Below, piece by piece: positions 40,831-58,010 of a DNA stretch of 64,000 nt (position 1 is its first letter; each line of letters starts with the position of its first letter). The stretch is from Candidatus Hadarchaeota archaeon. Lineage in GTDB: Archaea; Hadarchaeota; Hadarchaeia; Hadarchaeales; JAGGTB01. The notes under the pieces were generated by a model. That model worked only from the letters and a program-made list of their open reading frames with translations, did no database searches and was not told where the DNA came from. The stretch lies in NCBI GenBank assembly GCA_964384105.1, contig CAYLJV010000001.1, forward strand, positions 416,001 to 480,000, in the 5' to 3' direction. The position numbers and the translations under genes were made by a program.

Positions 40831-41250
40831 TTATATGAATAGTGTGATTTGTGATTCTTTTGCTTCTTTGAGGTAGGTTCCGACTGCGCAGTAGTCGGTT
40901 ATGACTTCGTCGCGTAAGTCTTGTTTGCTTATCCCCATGATTTCCATGGTCATGTCGCAGGCGAGGATTTTTCCTCCGAGTTCGACGTAGTCTTGGAGCA
41001 TGTCTTCTAGTGATCTGACGTTGGCTTCCTTCATCTTCTTATTGATCATCCACTTTCCTAAACCCATCATGTTCTTCCTCGAGAGTGAACCTTCCTCCAG
41101 TTCACCCTTCTTCAAGCGTTCCAAACCCCAGAAGGTGAAGAACATTGAAACATCCATGTCCATGGACAACGCTCCATTACCAATAATGAAAGCACTGTAA
41201 ACCTTATCCATATCTCCACTATGCACAATCAAAGTCACTTTTTCAGACAA
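40831..41250 (-). CDS. DsrE/DsrF/DrsH-like (DsrE2) sulfurtransferase
   Basis: SGDMDK, GA..M..V.MFFTFWGL, AC.MTM..MG. Confidence 0.9.
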   Translation of the reverse strand: MSEKVTLIVHSGDMDKVYSAFIIGNGALSMDMDVSMFFTFWGLERLKKGELEEGSLSRKNMMGLGKWMINKKMKEANVRSLEDMLQDYVELGGKILACDMTMEIMGISKQDLRDEVITDYCAVGTYLKEAKESQITLFI

Positions 41251-41269
41251 ATTTAGACCTCCTTATATT

Positions 41270-41494
41270 CTATTTCACTTTTATTTTGATTATCCATTTA
41301 CTATTCTCCTCTCTAATATCCAGTAGTTCGTGATCCATCTCTTTTACGGCCATTGGGATTTCTTTTTCCGAAGCGGAATGAGTTCCTGTGATTTCTATAA
41401 TGTCTCCTTGGGAAGCGGCAATAATTGCTTTTCGAGTTTCCACTAGGGGGACTGGGCAGGTTTCCCCCACGACGTCTATTTTCTTTACAGTCAA
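41270..41494 (-). CDS. tusA: TusA family sulfur carrier protein
   Basis: ID..G..CPVP motif; 74 aa. Confidence 0.9.
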   Translation of the reverse strand: MTVKKIDVVGETCPVPLVETRKAIIAASQGDIIEITGTHSASEKEIPMAVKEMDHELLDIREENSKWIIKIKVK

Positions 41495-41572
41495 CTTTTA
41501 TTTCACCATTTTACTATTATCTCAAAACTTTTATAAACTTTACTCACAATATAGTGATTATAGGTGTGGGTA

Positions 41573-42271
41573 TTGAAAGTAGAGAGTTTAAAGCGAACGC
41601 TTAAAGGGCTTCATAGTGGTGAGGTTTCGGAAGAAGAGGCTTTGAGGGTTATTAAAGATGCTACACCTCTCGAGATTTCTAAGGCTGAACAGAGCCTTTT
41701 GGATGAGGGAATAAGTGAGTCAGAGTTAAAGGATTTCTGTAAAGTGCATTTACAAGCTGTTCAGGATCGAATAGATAAAATAAAGTCTCGATTGGGAGAT
41801 AGTCATCCAATAAAAATTCTAATTTCTGAACACGATGATATATTGGGTTTTCTTGATGTTCTGGAGGAGATTGGTGACAGAATTCCCTCTGGTCTTTCAG
41901 AAGAAGATAAAGGAAAATTAAAGAAAGTGGCCAAAAATCTCGTAGAATCAGAGAAACATCATGAACGGGAAGAGGAGGTAATTTTTCCTAGGTTGGAGGA
42001 GAGGGGGATTGACGGTCCTCCGAGGATAATGAAACAAGATCACAATGAGTTCAGACCTCGGAAAAAGAAACTTCTTGAACTTTCGAAAAATCCAGAGAAA
42101 AATAAAGAAGAGATTGTAGAGTTGATAGACTTTTTAACATACAATTTACGAGACCATATTTTCAAGGAAAACAACATTCTTTATCCGACGGCTTTGGACG
42201 AGTTAGAAGATTGGGATGTTATTGGAGAGGAGGGGGAGAGGATAGGGTTATGTTCTTTCTCCAATATTTGA
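41573..42271 (+). CDS. DUF438 / hemerythrin-like domain protein
   Basis: EIS.AEQ.L..EG, FC.VH, HP..IL..EH, H..REE..IFP.LE..G..GP, HIFKENNILYP. Confidence 0.85.
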   Translation: MKVESLKRTLKGLHSGEVSEEEALRVIKDATPLEISKAEQSLLDEGISESELKDFCKVHLQAVQDRIDKIKSRLGDSHPIKILISEHDDILGFLDVLEEIGDRIPSGLSEEDKGKLKKVAKNLVESEKHHEREEEVIFPRLEERGIDGPPRIMKQDHNEFRPRKKKLLELSKNPEKNKEEIVELIDFLTYNLRDHIFKENNILYPTALDELEDWDVIGEEGERIGLCSFSNI

Positions 42272-42326
42272 AAGGAATCCCAAGCTTTGGATCTCTGATC
42301 CCTGATAAATTGGGGGTGATTTGAGA

Positions 42327-42617
42327 GTGGTGAGTAAAGAAAAGGTTTGGAAAAAATTGGAAAAAGTTCAGGACCCGGAATTCGGAACTCCTGTAACTAA
42401 GATGGGTTTGATAGATGAAGCGGAAGTAGATGATGCTAAAGTATCCGTGAAATTCCATTTAGCAGCGCCAATGTGCCCTCCGCCTTTTGTTATGAATATG
42501 GGTAAGCAGATCAAAGAGTACATTTCAGAAATAGATGGTGTGGAGGAGGTTGAGGTTATAGTCCAGGAACATTTCCAAGCCGATGATTTGAATCGACGTC
42601 TCAAAGAGGTGGAATAA
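42327..42617 (+). CDS. DUF59 (SufT/PaaD-like) Fe-S cluster assembly factor
   Basis: L..V.DPE....V..MGLI and P.CP motifs. Confidence 0.85.
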   Translation: MVSKEKVWKKLEKVQDPEFGTPVTKMGLIDEAEVDDAKVSVKFHLAAPMCPPPFVMNMGKQIKEYISEIDGVEEVEVIVQEHFQADDLNRRLKEVE

Positions 42618-42619
42618 CT

Positions 42620-43171
42620 ATGGAGTTCACTGAAGATCAGAAAAAGGAGCACAGAGTTATTGAAGAAGCTTTAGATATTCTGGAAGAGATTAACAAGAAA
42701 TTTGAAAATGATGAGGAAGTTAAGTCCGATATTTTGGGGGATCTGATCGATTTTTTCAGAATTTTCGCTGATAAATGCCATCATGGCAAAGAACAAGACT
42801 TGCTTTTTCCTGCATTAGAAATGACGGGGATGTCAAGGGTTAACAGCCCGATAGGTATTCTCCTTAGAGAACATGAAATTTCTAGGAGCTATATACAGAA
42901 CATTGATCGAGCTCTGCAGGATTACGAGATTGGTGACATTACTGCAAAGAAGGATATTCTCCAGAACTCTCGTGTATATATAGAACTCCTGAATCAGCAT
43001 ATAGAAAAAGAGGACAGTCTCCTTTACCCTATGGCGGAGGAAAAAATCTCAGATGATCGTAAAATTGACCTTTTGAATGCATACGAGAATTTTGAAAAAG
43101 AGGTTATCAGAGAGGGGGTTCACGAAAAATACCATGATATGATTGAACGACTGAAGAATGGAGGACTCTGA
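42620..43171 (+). CDS. Hemerythrin (HHE) domain protein
   Basis: EH..I, FADKCHHGKE..LLFP, EH...R, HI.KE...LYP. Confidence 0.9.
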   Translation: MEFTEDQKKEHRVIEEALDILEEINKKFENDEEVKSDILGDLIDFFRIFADKCHHGKEQDLLFPALEMTGMSRVNSPIGILLREHEISRSYIQNIDRALQDYEIGDITAKKDILQNSRVYIELLNQHIEKEDSLLYPMAEEKISDDRKIDLLNAYENFEKEVIREGVHEKYHDMIERLKNGGL

Positions 43172-43186
43172 TTTAGGGGGATTAAT

Positions 43187-44206
43187 TTGAGGGTTGGAAG
43201 GGACTTAAGGTTTCTGTTTAATGCTTTAAAGATGCGGTTCTTCACCAAGAGGCCGATATTTCTTAGTCATATGATTACCTCCCGGTGTGATTGTGAGTGT
43301 GAGACATGTCATTATTGGTCTCTTGGGAGTAGGGAGGAGATGTCCACGGAGGAGATTCAGCGGATGCTCAGCGATGCTTACTCGTATGGTATGACTGATT
43401 ATGTTGTGTGGGGAGGGGAACCTTTATTGCGAGAGGATTTACCAAGGATTCTTTCTTTTTCAGATTCAATTGGTCTGGATACTACAGTTATTACAAATGG
43501 GAGTAAGCTTACTGAAAAGATAGATAGTATCGGCGAATATCTCTACGGTTTGATTGTTTCTATTGATCATCCGGATCCTACTGTTCATGATAGTATTCGG
43601 AAGAAGAAGGGGATATACCATAAAGCTATCCAGGGGATAAAGGATGCGAAAAAATACTCCGATTTGGACATATTCATAAACTGTGTGATAAGCAGGAGGA
43701 ATTTTCACCAGCTAAGGGAGATTACTGAGCTAGCTAGTGAGCTTGATGTGAAAATTTCCTTTGAAATGATGGAGCTCATCGAAGGTTATAATGAAGGTCT
43801 ATCTTTGAGTCGAGAGGAGGTTTCAGAGGCTTGTAGAGAGCTAATTGATTTAAAACGAGAGGGTTATCCCATTGTTAATTCTGAAGCTTATTTTGAATCG
43901 GTGGCAGATGAGGAGGAATATTCTTGTCATGTTCCCAAAATCCTTGTTACTGTAGAATGGGATGGCGAGGTTAGACTTTGTTCCACAATTTCCGAAGATG
44001 TGAGGCCTGATTTAGAGGTAGGGAGTCTAGGGAATTTAAGAGAGGATAGTTTTAGGGAGATATTCGAGTCCGAAAACTATGAGAAATACGTTGATGCTGC
44101 GGAGAAATGTTGGAAGTGTGATCTTTCTTATCCCAGAGAATCCGCTCATTTGTATTCACTGGATAAGAAGGCTCTGAAAAATTTCTTTGGAAGAATAATG
44201 GGATAA
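43187..44206 (+). CDS. Radical SAM protein with C-terminal SPASM/twitch-like cysteines
   Basis: CxxxCxxC (CDCECETC), GGEPLLR, TNG, VSID; C...DG.V..C...C..C. Confidence 0.88.
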   Translation: MRVGRDLRFLFNALKMRFFTKRPIFLSHMITSRCDCECETCHYWSLGSREEMSTEEIQRMLSDAYSYGMTDYVVWGGEPLLREDLPRILSFSDSIGLDTTVITNGSKLTEKIDSIGEYLYGLIVSIDHPDPTVHDSIRKKKGIYHKAIQGIKDAKKYSDLDIFINCVISRRNFHQLREITELASELDVKISFEMMELIEGYNEGLSLSREEVSEACRELIDLKREGYPIVNSEAYFESVADEEEYSCHVPKILVTVEWDGEVRLCSTISEDVRPDLEVGSLGNLREDSFREIFESENYEKYVDAAEKCWKCDLSYPRESAHLYSLDKKALKNFFGRIMG

Positions 44207-44250
44207 AAAAATAAATAAAAAAGAATTGGAAAATAACTTTCAAGAAAAAT

Positions 44251-46128
44251 TCACAAACCAAGTCTCTTTCTCTTGTCTTCTATGTGTGCCTCTATGTCAT
44301 CAACAGCTTCCACAGGATCATCCCCAACGGCTAGTTTTCCGCCTGTTATTCCCTCCAGGTCTTCTGTGAGGAGTTTTACGACGTTTTCACTCCCGGTTAC
44401 TGGCGGTGTTGGAGAGACGTGAGCATATAGTCCATAAGCTACTGCAGCGATTGCATCGATAGTAGCCTTTTGCTCCATGTATTCTGGGGCAGTTACTGCT
44501 ACGGGCAGATCAGTTGGATCAACTCCTAGCTCTTTAGCTACCGTACTCACTAAATTTATCAATCTGCCAGTGTCTGTGCAAGTTCCGAAGCCCAAAACGG
44601 GTGGTATGTCTAAAGCTTCACATACAGTCTCCAGACCTTCGCCTGCTTTTGCTTTTGCTTCTAGACTCGTGAGACCTCCGACTTGCAGGCCTGCGTTTCC
44701 ACATCCTGCGCTTAGGACAAGTATGTCCCTCTTTATCAGTTCCTCGGCAACGGCGATCGTTGTCTCGTCCTGTGGCCCATTTTTCAGAGTGGTGCAGCTT
44801 ACGAGCGCCACGATACCCCTTATATTTCCTTCTTTAATCTGATCTATGAGAGGATCTAAAGAGCCACCTAATGCTTCGAGGACTGATTCTGTTGAGAACC
44901 CAGTTGTTATTTCCTTCTTGTAGTCGGGAACGTTGGTTGGTTTTCCCTTTCTCCCTTTGAAGTTTTCTATTGCTTTATCGATTATTTTCAGTGCTTGTTC
45001 TTCTGCTTTTTCTGGCTTATAGTTGATCTCGTGTTCGACGTTAGGTATGTTTACTAGTTTCGTTACCGGAATTATGGTAGAATTGAATCTCTCTGCATAC
45101 TCACCGGCTGTGGGGACGGTACAGTTCATATCGGCAACGAAAGCATCTACGGCTCCGGTAGCCAGAACGTATTCCTCGTTTAACCAGTTTCCTGTAAGGC
45201 CCACAAAGGTGTCATCACATTCAAATCTTTGAAGCAGTTCTTGTCCTGTCTCTATTGATCCTACTATATGAACTCCTTTTGCTCCTGCCTTCTTTGCTTT
45301 TTCTTGTACCTCGTCTCTTCTGGCAACCTGAATAAGCGCGGCACCTATGAATGGCTCGTGTCCATTTGGTAATATATTCACGTATTCGGGATCAAGAACA
45401 CCCATGTCAACTTCTGCTTTGTGAGGCTTTGCTGTTCCAAAGAGAATATCCTGTACTTCTTCAAGTAAAGTTAAAGAACCATAAGCGGTGGCTAGTCCCA
45501 TTCGAAGAGTTTTTAGTCCCATGCTTTCGTAATCGCTGTCCACGTTTGTCATAACACTGGTTTTTACGTCCATCATTTCATGTAGTGGTCCACCTGGGAG
45601 AATACCCAGTTCCCTCCAGACCTTTTTTCTAGACTCAGGTGCTAGGGCTTGCAACACTTCAGATGGTTCTTCGCTGTCTCTATTGATCTCTTCCATCATG
45701 AAATCTGCTAGGTCTATGGCTAATTCGGCGGTTTCTTTTTCTGTATCTAGGTCCAGCTTTTCTCCGATAGTTCTAAGTTTTTCTTCGTCTTTAATCTCAA
45801 ATATTGTGTCGCCTTTAGCGGTGGCTTTCAAAGTTTTTGCAGCTGTTTTGGCGTGGTAAGTGTATGCAGCGGTTCCCAAACTATTTACTCGCAGTAGATT
45901 TCTCATTACTAATCCATCTATGTTTATGCCACAGACTCCTCTGTCTGTTATACCCGGAACTATTTTACAGGGTCCTTGGCTACAGATCGTGCATTTCACC
46001 CCTTTTTCACAGTAGGGACACCTTACTTTTTCCATCTCTTTGAACCTTTTGTGAACATTTGAGAGACCTTCCTCCGAGACCTTTTCGAACATTTCTGAAA
46101 CGGATTTGTGTGCACTAACTTCGTCCAT
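44251..46128 (-). CDS. cooS: CooS-family (anaerobic CODH catalytic subunit) protein with non-canonical C-cluster ligands (CooS-V/clade D-like)
   Basis: CPYC..GVKCTICSQGPC..VCG; NGHEP, GSIETGQE, DMNCT, VSCTT, AGCG, GTCTD, EQKA. Confidence 0.9.
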   Translation of the reverse strand: MDEVSAHKSVSEMFEKVSEEGLSNVHKRFKEMEKVRCPYCEKGVKCTICSQGPCKIVPGITDRGVCGINIDGLVMRNLLRVNSLGTAAYTYHAKTAAKTLKATAKGDTIFEIKDEEKLRTIGEKLDLDTEKETAELAIDLADFMMEEINRDSEEPSEVLQALAPESRKKVWRELGILPGGPLHEMMDVKTSVMTNVDSDYESMGLKTLRMGLATAYGSLTLLEEVQDILFGTAKPHKAEVDMGVLDPEYVNILPNGHEPFIGAALIQVARRDEVQEKAKKAGAKGVHIVGSIETGQELLQRFECDDTFVGLTGNWLNEEYVLATGAVDAFVADMNCTVPTAGEYAERFNSTIIPVTKLVNIPNVEHEINYKPEKAEEQALKIIDKAIENFKGRKGKPTNVPDYKKEITTGFSTESVLEALGGSLDPLIDQIKEGNIRGIVALVSCTTLKNGPQDETTIAVAEELIKRDILVLSAGCGNAGLQVGGLTSLEAKAKAGEGLETVCEALDIPPVLGFGTCTDTGRLINLVSTVAKELGVDPTDLPVAVTAPEYMEQKATIDAIAAVAYGLYAHVSPTPPVTGSENVVKLLTEDLEGITGGKLAVGDDPVEAVDDIEAHIEDKRKRLGL

Positions 46129-46216
46129 TTTTTCACCTCCTATTCGTACCTTTTACTCTTTATAATCACCATATAGTTTTTTATATCCTTTTGAATAATC
46201 CTTGAATAAGGGTAAT

Positions 46217-46864
46217 ATGATGAAAAGGCAAGAAGGGATACCACTTAGCGAGACTAGGTCCTCAATATTGAGGCATTTGTTAGGCGAAGACTTGAGTGCG
46301 ATAAACTTAGAGGAAAAAATTGGGATTAATGAAAGTGCTATAAGAAGACATTTAGACGTACTTGAGCAAAAAGGATATGTAACCCACTATTTTGAAAAAG
46401 CCGAGCGTGGACGTCCAAAAAAGATGTATGAGATAACACTTACTGGAAGGCGGGTTTTTCCACAAAAAACTCATATTTTATTTGCATTCCTTGCTAAGGA
46501 AGTCAAAGAAAAATATGGAGAGACTGGGCTCGAAGACTTATTGTCGGAAGTTGCATCTGATTTTTCAGATCTTCTTGTTTCGGAAAAAGATGAAATTTCC
46601 ACAGATGAGCGATTAGAAAGACTAGTTGAATCCTTAGATGAATTCGGTTTTTATCCGTCGTTGAAGCGGAAGAATGGTGAGTATTACATAGAGTACCGTA
46701 ATTGTGTTTTTGGGAGCGTTGTTAACGAATTTGATGTACCCCTTTGCAAAATGCATAGAAAGATAATTAAGAATGCTCTGTCGGATTCACGGGTGAATCA
46801 GCAAAAGAGCATTTTGAAAGGAGACAACTTTTGCACTCATAGAGTCAGTTTTGAAAATGGTTGA
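46217..46864 (+). CDS. ArsR/SufR-like HTH regulator with Cys-containing C-terminal domain, divergent from cooS
   Basis: AIRRHL..L...G.V, RGRP...Y..T..G..FP; NC.F, LC..H, C.H. Confidence 0.85.
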   Translation: MMKRQEGIPLSETRSSILRHLLGEDLSAINLEEKIGINESAIRRHLDVLEQKGYVTHYFEKAERGRPKKMYEITLTGRRVFPQKTHILFAFLAKEVKEKYGETGLEDLLSEVASDFSDLLVSEKDEISTDERLERLVESLDEFGFYPSLKRKNGEYYIEYRNCVFGSVVNEFDVPLCKMHRKIIKNALSDSRVNQQKSILKGDNFCTHRVSFENG

Positions 46865-57701: not shown

Positions 57702-58010
57702 ATGGAAATTATAGATTTGAAGTCGATTGAGTCCTCGGAGGAGTTCAGACCCCACAAGCTGATACAGAAGGACGAGGTTGAAGTGGTTCTCTTGGCCTTT
57801 GAACCGGGACAGGGCCTGCCTGTACACGAGACTCCAGTGGACGTGTTTTTCCATGTGATAGAGGGTGAAGCTAAAATAAAGGTCGGTGAAGAGGAAAAAA
57901 CTGTTTCAGAAGGAAATATTGTGCTGAGTCCTGCCGATATACCACATACGGTTAGGAATGAATCGGAAGAAGAAGCGAAGATCCTGGTAGTAAAGACTCC
58001 TAAACCGTAA
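57702..58010 (+). CDS. Cupin domain protein
   Basis: PGQ..P.H....D.FF.V.EG and P...PH.V.N motifs. Confidence 0.9.
   Translation: MEIIDLKSIESSEEFRPHKLIQKDEVEVVLLAFEPGQGLPVHETPVDVFFHVIEGEAKIKVGEEEKTVSEGNIVLSPADIPHTVRNESEEEAKILVVKTPKP

Follow-up and report, generated by a model that had tools for sequence, protein, structure and literature searches.

A CooS-V gene in a Hadarchaeota genome: a candidate mosaic of stress-type units under a distant relative of MsvR

CooS-V enzymes are homologues of carbon monoxide dehydrogenases (CODHs) for which structures, but no physiological role, have been described; sequences of this kind are assigned here to clade D, structural group D-1, a class of Inoue et al. 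2019 (PMC6344411). The protein of C. hydrogenoformans (ChCooS-V) neither oxidises CO nor reduces CO2, contains an Fe/S/O hybrid cluster and slowly reduces hydroxylamine, its cluster potentials lying ~300 mV below those of the hybrid cluster protein (HCP) (Jeoung et al. 2022, PMC9311411). The Fe/S/O cluster was gained upon expression in E. coli and in its oxidised state bears a persulfide on Cys521 (PMC9311411). According to the introduction of the same paper, CooS-V-type genes occur only beside further CODH genes, and the latest (2026) context survey describes no clear neighbour pattern for clade D beyond ~10% “transcription regulators” (PMC13056359). The present analysis concerns a CooS gene of this class in a Candidatus Hadarchaeota archaeon, located with seven other genes at positions 40831-46864 of a 64-kb stretch of DNA (hereafter the window) from a 1.6-Mb, 90% complete genome (G000). 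The cluster encodes a DsrE-like sulfur carrier, a TusA-type sulfurtransferase, a DUF438-hemerythrin protein, a DUF59 protein, a second, stand-alone hemerythrin, a radical SAM/SPASM enzyme (rSAM), CooS and a regulator that we call Reg (Table 1). We lean towards reading it as a strain-specific mosaic of separately conserved stress-type units placed under one local, cysteine-based redox regulator, and not as a dedicated CooS accessory system.

Several other described systems contain comparable parts. SufR is a cyanobacterial repressor of suf genes that senses Fe-S clusters and binds a [4Fe-4S] cluster through four cysteines. Sulfane-sulfur or persulfide-type sensing functions are known for SqrR, BigR and CstR and for SurR; persulfide-responsive systems with TusA- or DsrE-type carriers include CstR-CstA of Staphylococcus, SqrR and BigR, and DsrE3A-TusA of Metallosphaera. 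MsvR has been described as methanogen-specific and is known from a locus of Methanothermobacter in which msvR is divergent from fpaA-rlp-rub; its boxes, TTCGN7-9CGAA, abut the B recognition element (BRE) and TATA box, and DNA binding by MaMsvR requires the reduced protein and is lost when cysteines of its V4R domain are oxidised (Isom et al. 2013, PMC3729527). The window cluster resembles the persulfide-responsive systems in having a cysteine-based regulator near TusA- and DsrE-family carriers with active-site cysteines, but it contains no rhodanese, persulfide dioxygenase, SQR or Hdr-like genes, and its regulator belongs to another family. With Hcp/HcpR and RIC (YtfE) it shares the combination of a hybrid-cluster enzyme and di-iron hemerythrin-type proteins under a redox or NO regulator. 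However, no Crp/Fnr regulator or box is present at the window locus, a DUF438 domain is found instead of ScdA_N, and the two hemerythrins share only the HHE domain with RIC/YtfE profiles, scoring 22.6-29.5 bits against cutoffs of 204.7 and 254 (at best 29.5 vs 254).

By sequence, the window CooS is a member of the CooS-V class, clade D-1. Its closest solved relative is ChCooS-V (PDB 7B7Q; E 5.7e-226, ~60% identity over the full length), with other solved CODHs scoring far below, and on a CooS-type scaffold it combines the three features by which group D-1 was recognised here (PMC6344411, PMC9311411): Glu for Cys295, Tyr at the acid-base His and a type III D-cluster. The segment GSIETGQE, identical in 7B7Q, aligns with GLCCTGNE of the canonical CODH of a congener (L112), Glu293 (codon 45250-45252) thereby occupying the Cys295 position, while AAYTYH, aligned with ASTHSDH, has Tyr89 at the position of the catalytic His; the D-cluster is C37-x2-C40 (CxxC). 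The B-cluster cysteines (C46, C49, C54 and C66) are retained, as are the hybrid-cluster ligands H257, C336, C445, C476 and C517, which are invariant in 15 relatives. Residues H257, E293, C445 and C517 correspond to His259, Glu295, Cys449 and Cys521 of ChCooS-V. The alignments to 7B7Q and to canonical CODH agree with a first-pass annotation of this DNA, in which Glu had been noted at the Cys295 equivalent near 45250, Tyr for His93, a CxxC D-cluster, an intact B-cluster and most of the C-cluster ligands. Its assignment of the protein to a CooS-V type, probably Ni-free, is likewise supported by the identity to 7B7Q and the ligand set, from which an enzyme without Ni and without CO oxidation, carrying an Fe/S/O hybrid cluster, is probable.

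As in the case of ChCooS-V, no C1-metabolism genes lie beside the window CooS. Of 11 gene products scanned in the interval from 38.4 to 48.1 kb, none is a CooC, CooF or AcsB, as the first reading had reported, no genome-wide search having been aimed at cooC or cooF, and a CdhC/AcsB match was absent from the whole 90%-complete genome. Two differences from ChCooS-V stand out. The window CooS is archaeal and the only gene of the Prismane (CODH/HCP) family in its genome, incompleteness leaving some doubt on this point, whereas the introduction of PMC9311411 places such genes only alongside other CODHs; and it is flanked by a cysteine-based regulator and by genes for sulfur and iron handling.

The surroundings of CooS-V were surveyed in the best 80 of 545 confirmed GSIETGQE-type relatives from archaea and bacteria; the flanks have medians of 7.8 and 9.7 kb, and at 68 of the 80 loci they add up to 6 kb or more. 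They comprise the 23 closest archaeal loci (67-81% identity; L002-L024) and 57 distant ones, in which neighbours were counted with hidden Markov models (HMMs) built from sequences of this analysis. Beside CooS-V, 18 of the 19 near loci having a 5' flank carry a divergent regulator of ~245 aa, with an ArsR-type helix-turn-helix (HTH) and a V4R domain, and six of six such regulators tested pass the NCBIfam MsvR equivalog NF053755 (245-270 bits; cutoff 220). The published box TTCGN7-9CGAA precedes CooS-V in all 17 near loci examined, mostly 60-62 nt from the start and just upstream of the TATA-like TTTTTAAA; over all 290 kb of those MsvR-CooS-V loci it occurs 39 times. Literature searches turned up no paper that links MsvR with CooS, the one paper containing both words being unrelated. 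The presence of a redox-sensing MsvR with its published boxes before CooS-V in one archaeal clade is a regulatory lead, and the pairing gives an independent hint, at the level of sequence, that CooS-V is a redox-stress gene. Together with the cysteine-based regulator of the window and its definable operator, it points toward redox-stress control rather than carbon metabolism. Several of the metagenome-assembled genomes (MAGs) concerned are labelled Thermoplasmata or Hadarchaeota, in contrast to the description of MsvR as methanogen-specific in PMC3729527.

In the window, the place held by a true MsvR in those relatives is occupied by Reg, for which ATG 46217 is a likelier start than TTG 46202. 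An AlphaFold (AF2) model of Reg (mean confidence, pLDDT, 83.8) consists of a winged HTH, a long helix and an alpha/beta domain; the top structural matches of the C-terminal domain are Bet3/TRAPPC3, to which we take the V4R fold to be related. The HTH is of ArsR type, and matches of the Reg profile to PDB sequences are confined to this N-terminal part (Phr, SurR, PadR and similar). Reg also has a MetOD1 match of 24.5 bits (cutoff 23.8) and, in NCBIfam, a weak SurR match (22 bits). When 14 Reg proteins were compared with 13 MsvR proteins using hhalign, homology was found over 212 columns (probability 97.7%, E 2.3e-12), with the three cysteines of Reg lining up with conserved cysteines of MsvR. 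These three are invariant in 18 of 18 members of the Reg family, in the contexts NC[VA]F, LCxxH and GDxxC. On this evidence Reg is a distant MsvR paralogue with full-length sequence homology.

The two regulators have in common an architecture of winged HTH and V4R-type domain with conserved cysteines, a divergent orientation to a gene possibly under control, and an operator that abuts BRE/TATA, as MsvR boxes do (PMC3729527). They differ in that Reg scores 17.2 bits against the MsvR model NF053755 (cutoff 220), has three and not five conserved cysteines in the comparison made, and belongs to a family with the operator TCAC-N6-GTGA instead of TTCGN7-9CGAA. A search of the whole source genome returned no MsvR match and no V4R match (PF02830), and no MsvR box occurs in the 200 nt beside the window CooS and Reg; a lone TACGAA hexamer before the CooS start codon may be a remnant of such a box or due to chance. 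Resemblance to SufR is weaker. Residues 18-212 of Reg match positions 2-205 of the 208 of SufR TIGR02702 with 59.6 bits, below the cutoff of 178.8; both have an HTH and a cysteine-bearing C-terminal domain, and a DUF59 gene of Fe-S assembly type lies nearby. Reg nevertheless has three invariant cysteines, and no suf genes stand under a Reg operator. The divergent, cysteine-containing regulator like SufR or ArsR of the earlier description is real, and so is its weak SufR match, which falls far short of that family's cutoff. Genes of the Reg family were found in 6/6 congeneric genomes and in 0/34 other relatives.

Upstream of Reg-family genes, at 13 loci of other genomes, a common element was found that consists of (T/A)CAC-N6-GTG(A/G), then GTAAAG and then TATATAAA. 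Position weight matrices (PWMs) were built from 12 distinct sites of this kind, with the window excluded. Over the whole 1.6-Mb genome the top match of the 34-nt PWM lies in the window at 41527-41560, in the 69-bp gap between TusA-DsrE and the DUF438-hemerythrin operon, with 43.3 bits against 21.2 for the next; the 17-nt palindrome PWM gives 21.1 and 20.2 bits on the two strands there, the runner-up reaching 16.7. In minus-strand orientation, this strong site forms a complete operator-BRE-TATA promoter before TusA-DsrE. On the other side, its palindrome has a TATA-like box (41528-41537) before it and the GTG start of the hemerythrin operon behind it, a position that would be typical of archaeal repression. 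In the congeners L099 and L102, Reg, TusA and DsrE follow one another in a row, and operators that were not used for training lie directly before TusA (20.6 and 18.2 bits, respectively), for which reason TusA-DsrE is predicted to be a conserved direct target of Reg.

The second, weaker site of the window has the TATA-like boxes of CooS-V and reg, arranged back to back, on either side; its position is the one at which the operator is found in all orthologous Reg genes. Scores of 12.9 bits or more are reached at only 39 of 3.2 million genome positions, and 0.0014 would be expected in the 73-bp region. In relatives, Reg-family operators also occur between Reg and divergent DUF438-hemerythrin genes (L018, L020 and L009) and before short-chain dehydrogenase (SDR) genes, which may belong to the same regulon in other genomes. 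Seven other PWM matches inspected in the genome (15.0-16.7 bits) are mostly inside open reading frames (ORFs). The first-pass annotation had proposed a redox/sulfur stress unit; a local co-regulation of this kind is plausible from the Reg operators predicted in both divergent promoter regions, but a dedicated CooS system is not supported.

The units brought together in the window recur elsewhere in other combinations. Downstream of CooS-V, near loci have a small cupin (five loci) or a CGGC protein (three loci), and the small cupin (~105 aa) is found directly beside CooS-V also in four Methanoperedens loci. A ~270-aa protein with an N-terminal 2x[4Fe-4S] ferredoxin domain, which is a likely redox partner of CooS-V, is adjacent to it in 9 of the 57 distant bacterial and archaeal loci. 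In six loci (L003, L005, L006, L016, L018 and L020), Reg/ferredoxin-domain/cupin operons headed by Reg-family genes are present at 1-4 kb from CooS-V. The source genome has two cupin orthologues, one in the window at 57702-58010 (+), ~11.5 kb from CooS-V, and one at G000:C4:87204-87557; neither an orthologue of the 270-aa ferredoxin-domain protein nor a CGGC protein was found in this genome. As to regulation in the distant loci, perfect Crp/Fnr-type palindromes (TTGAC-N4-GTCAA) occur in the bacterial loci L030, L033 and L034 and a near-perfect one (TTGAT-N4-GTCAA) in L051, all at most 130 nt upstream of CooS-V or of a ferredoxin-CooS-V operon. With a relaxed pattern, 8 of the 57 distant loci were positive between 1300 nt upstream and 60 nt inside CooS-V, compared with 39 occurrences in 900 kb of background, so that these boxes are suggestive only.

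For the rSAM, 11 metagenome loci were available in which the enzyme is 51-59% identical, two pairs of them being near-duplicates. In seven of the 11 (L115-L118 and L121-L123) a hemerythrin, with or without DUF438, adjoins the rSAM gene: homologues of the DUF438-hemerythrin in L117, L118 and L121, and orthologues of the stand-alone hemerythrin in L115, L116 and L122. A DsrE-family gene lies within 3.5 kb of rSAM in three of the 11, and CooS-V was found within 6 kb in none. Since hemerythrin and rSAM are paired in most of these loci and never with CooS-V, they form a conserved pair in their own right. Like the ferredoxin-domain and cupin partners of CooS-V, this pairing offers a small new handle for biochemistry.

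According to the mosaic reading, three conserved units would now lie between two Reg-family operators, namely TusA-DsrE with its operator, the hemerythrin-rSAM pair, and a CooS-V that would have lost its MsvR promoter. By analogy with MsvR, reduced Reg would bind and repress, and oxidation or modification of its three cysteines, be it by O2-derived oxidants, NO or sulfane sulfur, signals that are indistinguishable by sequence, would release it and switch on the four units together. Their products would act in parallel and not as one machine. CooS-V, judged by its homology, may reduce some small oxidised species at low potential and so remove an oxidant, TusA and DsrE would carry persulfide sulfur, and the di-iron hemerythrins, DUF59 and rSAM might handle damaged or newly made Fe-S centres, or an unknown small substrate. 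In other genomes, pairwise links join CooS-V with the ferredoxin-domain protein and cupin, these with Reg, Reg with TusA-DsrE and with hemerythrin, hemerythrin with rSAM, and rSAM with DsrE. Because this chain of associations connects all units, a common redox-stress response fits better than a maturation pathway. It is also conceivable, although we would sooner expect otherwise, that Reg is the founding member of an MsvR-family branch so far undescribed, in hypersaline archaea of non-methanogen type, with its own operator and with a regulon of TusA-DsrE, hemerythrin/DUF59/rSAM and, here, CooS-V. If this branch and the MsvR before CooS-V are both borne out, they would be the first genomic evidence of CooS-V enzymes as effectors of a thiol-sensed redox-stress response in archaea, and hemerythrin with rSAM would count as a new conserved stress module. 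The novelty is modest: it lies in the branch to which Reg belongs, in the operator of that branch and in the regulators that accompany CooS-V (MsvR in relatives, Reg here), CooS itself being known biology.

A number of observations weigh against the mosaic reading. DsrE, TusA, DUF59 and the second hemerythrin were found in 0/80 of the other CooS-V loci (phmmer, E<=1), the first two likewise in 0/80 with family HMMs, and hemerythrins are absent from 75 of the 80. Many near loci come from related MAGs of similar habitats and are not independent. The strong operator belongs to the TusA promoter, and an effect on the hemerythrin operon would follow from its position only. The weaker site has GTT and not GTG in its right half-site and scores 13 bits compared with 20-21 for the strong one. 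Since the MsvR|CooS-V intergenic regions of the relatives contain no Reg operator, the case for CooS-V as a member of the Reg regulon is confined to this genome. Finally, CooS-V, rSAM (2/66 genomes of the phylum) and Reg (in the genus only) are all patchy accessory genes, which may have come together by chance in a variable region.

This last point leads to a juxtaposition of unrelated accessory genes between trpB2 and PAN/hflX, with no shared regulation or function, which we consider unlikely. CooS-V was found in 2/6 congeners and in 5/41 relatives including the genome of the window, and the MAGs containing its nearest relatives bear the labels of other lineages, a distribution suggestive of horizontal transfer. 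In the congener L106 (G003:C7), hflX, PAN, a Reg-like gene (38% identity) and trpB2 lie close together; no other gene of the window cluster was matched in this interval, in which ~1.6 kb between PAN and the Reg-like gene is unannotated, and the 40.8-46.2 kb segment of the window has the look of DNA inserted or rearranged within a variable interval. A purely fortuitous arrangement is opposed by the two operator matches, which fall exactly in the two divergent promoter regions, and by the links that recur elsewhere (Reg with hemerythrin and with TusA/DsrE, rSAM with hemerythrin and with DsrE, and a Reg operon near CooS-V). A regulon as in the mosaic reading might instead answer to sulfane sulfur or persulfide sensed by Reg, as a reactive-sulfur response suited to a sulfidic brine or mat, with TusA/DsrE as its core and CooS-V acting on a sulfur-oxygen or polysulfide substrate. 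In its favour, no target other than TusA-DsrE is conserved across three genomes, the HTH of Reg is of ArsR type and goes with conserved cysteines, Reg has its weak SurR match, and the sequencing runs that contain the stretch carry the label microbial mat. We nevertheless give this version little weight. Reg is homologous over its full length to MsvR, which senses redox state through thiols and acts on oxidative stress genes; hemerythrins are as a rule associated with O2, NO or iron; and no genes of sulfur oxidation or reduction were seen between 38 and 50 kb.

A still lower probability is assigned to the proposal of the first-pass annotation, that the neighbours form a dedicated module which builds or repairs the Fe/S/O cluster of CooS, with persulfide from TusA/DsrE, iron from the hemerythrins, and the participation of DUF59 and rSAM. 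Every gene belongs to a type that deals with sulfur, iron or Fe-S centres, the whole set fits into 6 kb and has predicted operators in common, and the persulfide on Cys521 of the oxidised ChCooS-V cluster (PMC9311411) would be in keeping with such a role. However, DsrE, TusA and DUF59 are absent from ~10 kb around 80 other CooS-V genes, including those of relatives at 76-79% identity. Hemerythrins lie within 10 kb in five of the 80 (L002, L009, L012, L018 and L020; family HMM) and are adjacent only in L018 and L020, and the window rSAM retrieved only two of the 80, both by weak generic radical SAM matches. None of the neighbours is a conserved partner of CooS-V, and the co-occurrence that had been put forward as a test of the proposal is lacking for most of them. 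The hemerythrin-rSAM pair occurs in seven of the 11 metagenome loci with no CooS-V within 6 kb, and TusA-DsrE accompanies Reg in the congeners G001 and G004, with CooS-V unmatched in the former and on another contig in the latter. Nor need a special module for building the cluster be invoked, since ChCooS-V produced in E. coli obtained its hybrid cluster in the absence of such partners (PMC9311411). Least probable of all, to the point of being nearly dismissed, is a working Ni,Fe-CODH with unusual ligands that serves CO metabolism. The protein does pass the NCBIfam model “anaerobic CO dehydrogenase catalytic subunit” (800 bits; cutoff 478) and is encoded by the only CODH-family gene of the genome, but Glu at Cys295 and Tyr at the catalytic His are exactly those of the CO-inactive ChCooS-V with its Fe/S/O cluster (PMC9311411), no acetyl-CoA synthase was matched in the genome, and genes for maturation factors or a ferredoxin partner were not seen next to CooS. 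The annotation is hence to be corrected: the organism's only “CO dehydrogenase” is very probably none, and no CO metabolism should be deduced from it.

The eight ORFs are arranged in four transcription units, and their bounds agree exactly with those of the locus. The four plus-strand genes from 41564 to 44206 are separated by 49, 2 and 15 nt, gaps which fit a single operon; CooS and rSAM are tail to tail, and CooS and Reg diverge across 73 bp. All eight genes named by the first-pass annotation were located and their families confirmed with Pfam and NCBIfam. On one side the cluster is flanked by trpB2-like and LysE genes, on the other by those of the proteasome ATPase PAN and HflX, which are ordinary archaeal housekeeping genes. 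Each junction between genes is spanned, without differences, by contigs of two public runs belonging to a single study, so that the arrangement is not due to an assembly error in just one data set.

Table 1. Genes and predicted operators of the window locus, and examples from the loci compared.
Feature	Position or loci	Strand	Support
DsrE-like sulfur carrier (DrsE_2 family), second gene of TusA-DsrE	40831-41250	-	PF13686, 132.7 bits (cutoff 25)
TusA-type sulfurtransferase	41270-41494	-	PF01206, 67.1 bits (cutoff 28.6); GETCPVP motif in translation
DUF438 + hemerythrin protein, first of four-gene operon, GTG start 41564	41564-42271	+	PF04282, PF01814
DUF59/FeS_assembly_P protein	42321-42617	+	PF01883, 57.7 bits
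Stand-alone hemerythrin (HHE domain)	42620-43171	+	PF01814, 71.6 bits
Radical SAM/SPASM enzyme (rSAM)	43187-44206	+	PF04055, PF13186
CooS, own transcription unit	44251-46128	-	PF03063, 510.9 bits; TIGR01702, 800 bits
Reg, winged HTH + V4R/Bet3-like sensor domain	46217-46864	+	Pfam/NCBIfam; ORF opens TTG 46202
Predicted Reg-family operator, palindrome TCAC-N6-GTGA 41541-41560, then GTAAAG + TTTATAAAA (BRE/TATA-like)	41527-41560	-	PWM
Weaker predicted Reg-family operator TAATCACCATATAGTTT	46163-46182		PWM, 12.9 and 13.3 bits on the two strands
MsvR beside CooS-V, examples	L004:9150-10001; L011:9151-10001; L019:9137-10001		
Cupin-CooS-V loci, near and Methanoperedens	L009, L011, L012, L014, L015, L045, L050, L063, L067		
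Ferredoxin-domain protein beside CooS-V	L034, L054, L057, L061, L064, L065, L072, L077, L079		
Predicted operators beside SDR genes	L002:8163-8196; L012:17721-17754; L015:6463-6496		PWM, 15.7-20.2 bits

Some further features of the individual genes may be mentioned. The CPxP Cys of TusA and the ACDMTM Cys of DsrE are candidate active-site cysteines in the translations, and we take them to be the catalytic residues. DsrE scores 66 bits against NCBIfam DsrE2, below the cutoff of 210. A second TusA-DsrE pair is present in the genome at G000:C6:44221-44978, in which TusA is much more diverged than DsrE; the DsrE copy (G000:C6:44538-44978) is near-identical (290.8 bits against 296.6 for self, differing at three positions within the part that the called ORF also covers), which suggests that DsrE was recently duplicated or underwent gene conversion. 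This paralogue is consistent with the variant letters at 40905-41041 and with the loose ends of contigs at 40835 and 41247.

The DUF59 gene is the sole copy detected in the genome with the window query, and no counterpart was found in any related locus, whether of the CooS-V survey or of the rSAM metagenome set. No functional study of DUF438 was found among the 22 papers listed as mentioning it. The rSAM belongs, by sequence similarity, to a small uncharacterised family related to the PTO1314 family: it scores 147.5 bits against TIGR03961, below the cutoff of 306, matches the generic radical SAM and SPASM domains, and has 87 relatives at E<=1e-20 among 5.8 billion proteins. The motif C34-x3-C38-x2-C41 and four C-terminal cysteines are invariant in 14 sequences. 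Upstream of rSAM in the metagenome loci, an SCP2-like ORF and a 75-aa zinc-ribbon ORF are often found, and SDR genes are near rSAM in L116 and L122.

As an alternative description of the operator, the exact 12-mer TCACMATATAGT was tried and rejected in favour of the PWM from other genomes, being too strict and partly circular, as it was derived from both window sites. Its exact form occurs genome-wide only at those two sites; with one mismatch there are 13 sites, compared with 19 for the reversed control, and 0 in the other loci. In the runs X1 and X2, some contigs match the window until 42368 and continue into unrelated sequence, and others begin to match at 42801 after unrelated sequence, while one contig of 3574 nt spans this region exactly as in the window; the population may contain a variant with a different sequence near the DUF59 gene and where the second hemerythrin begins.

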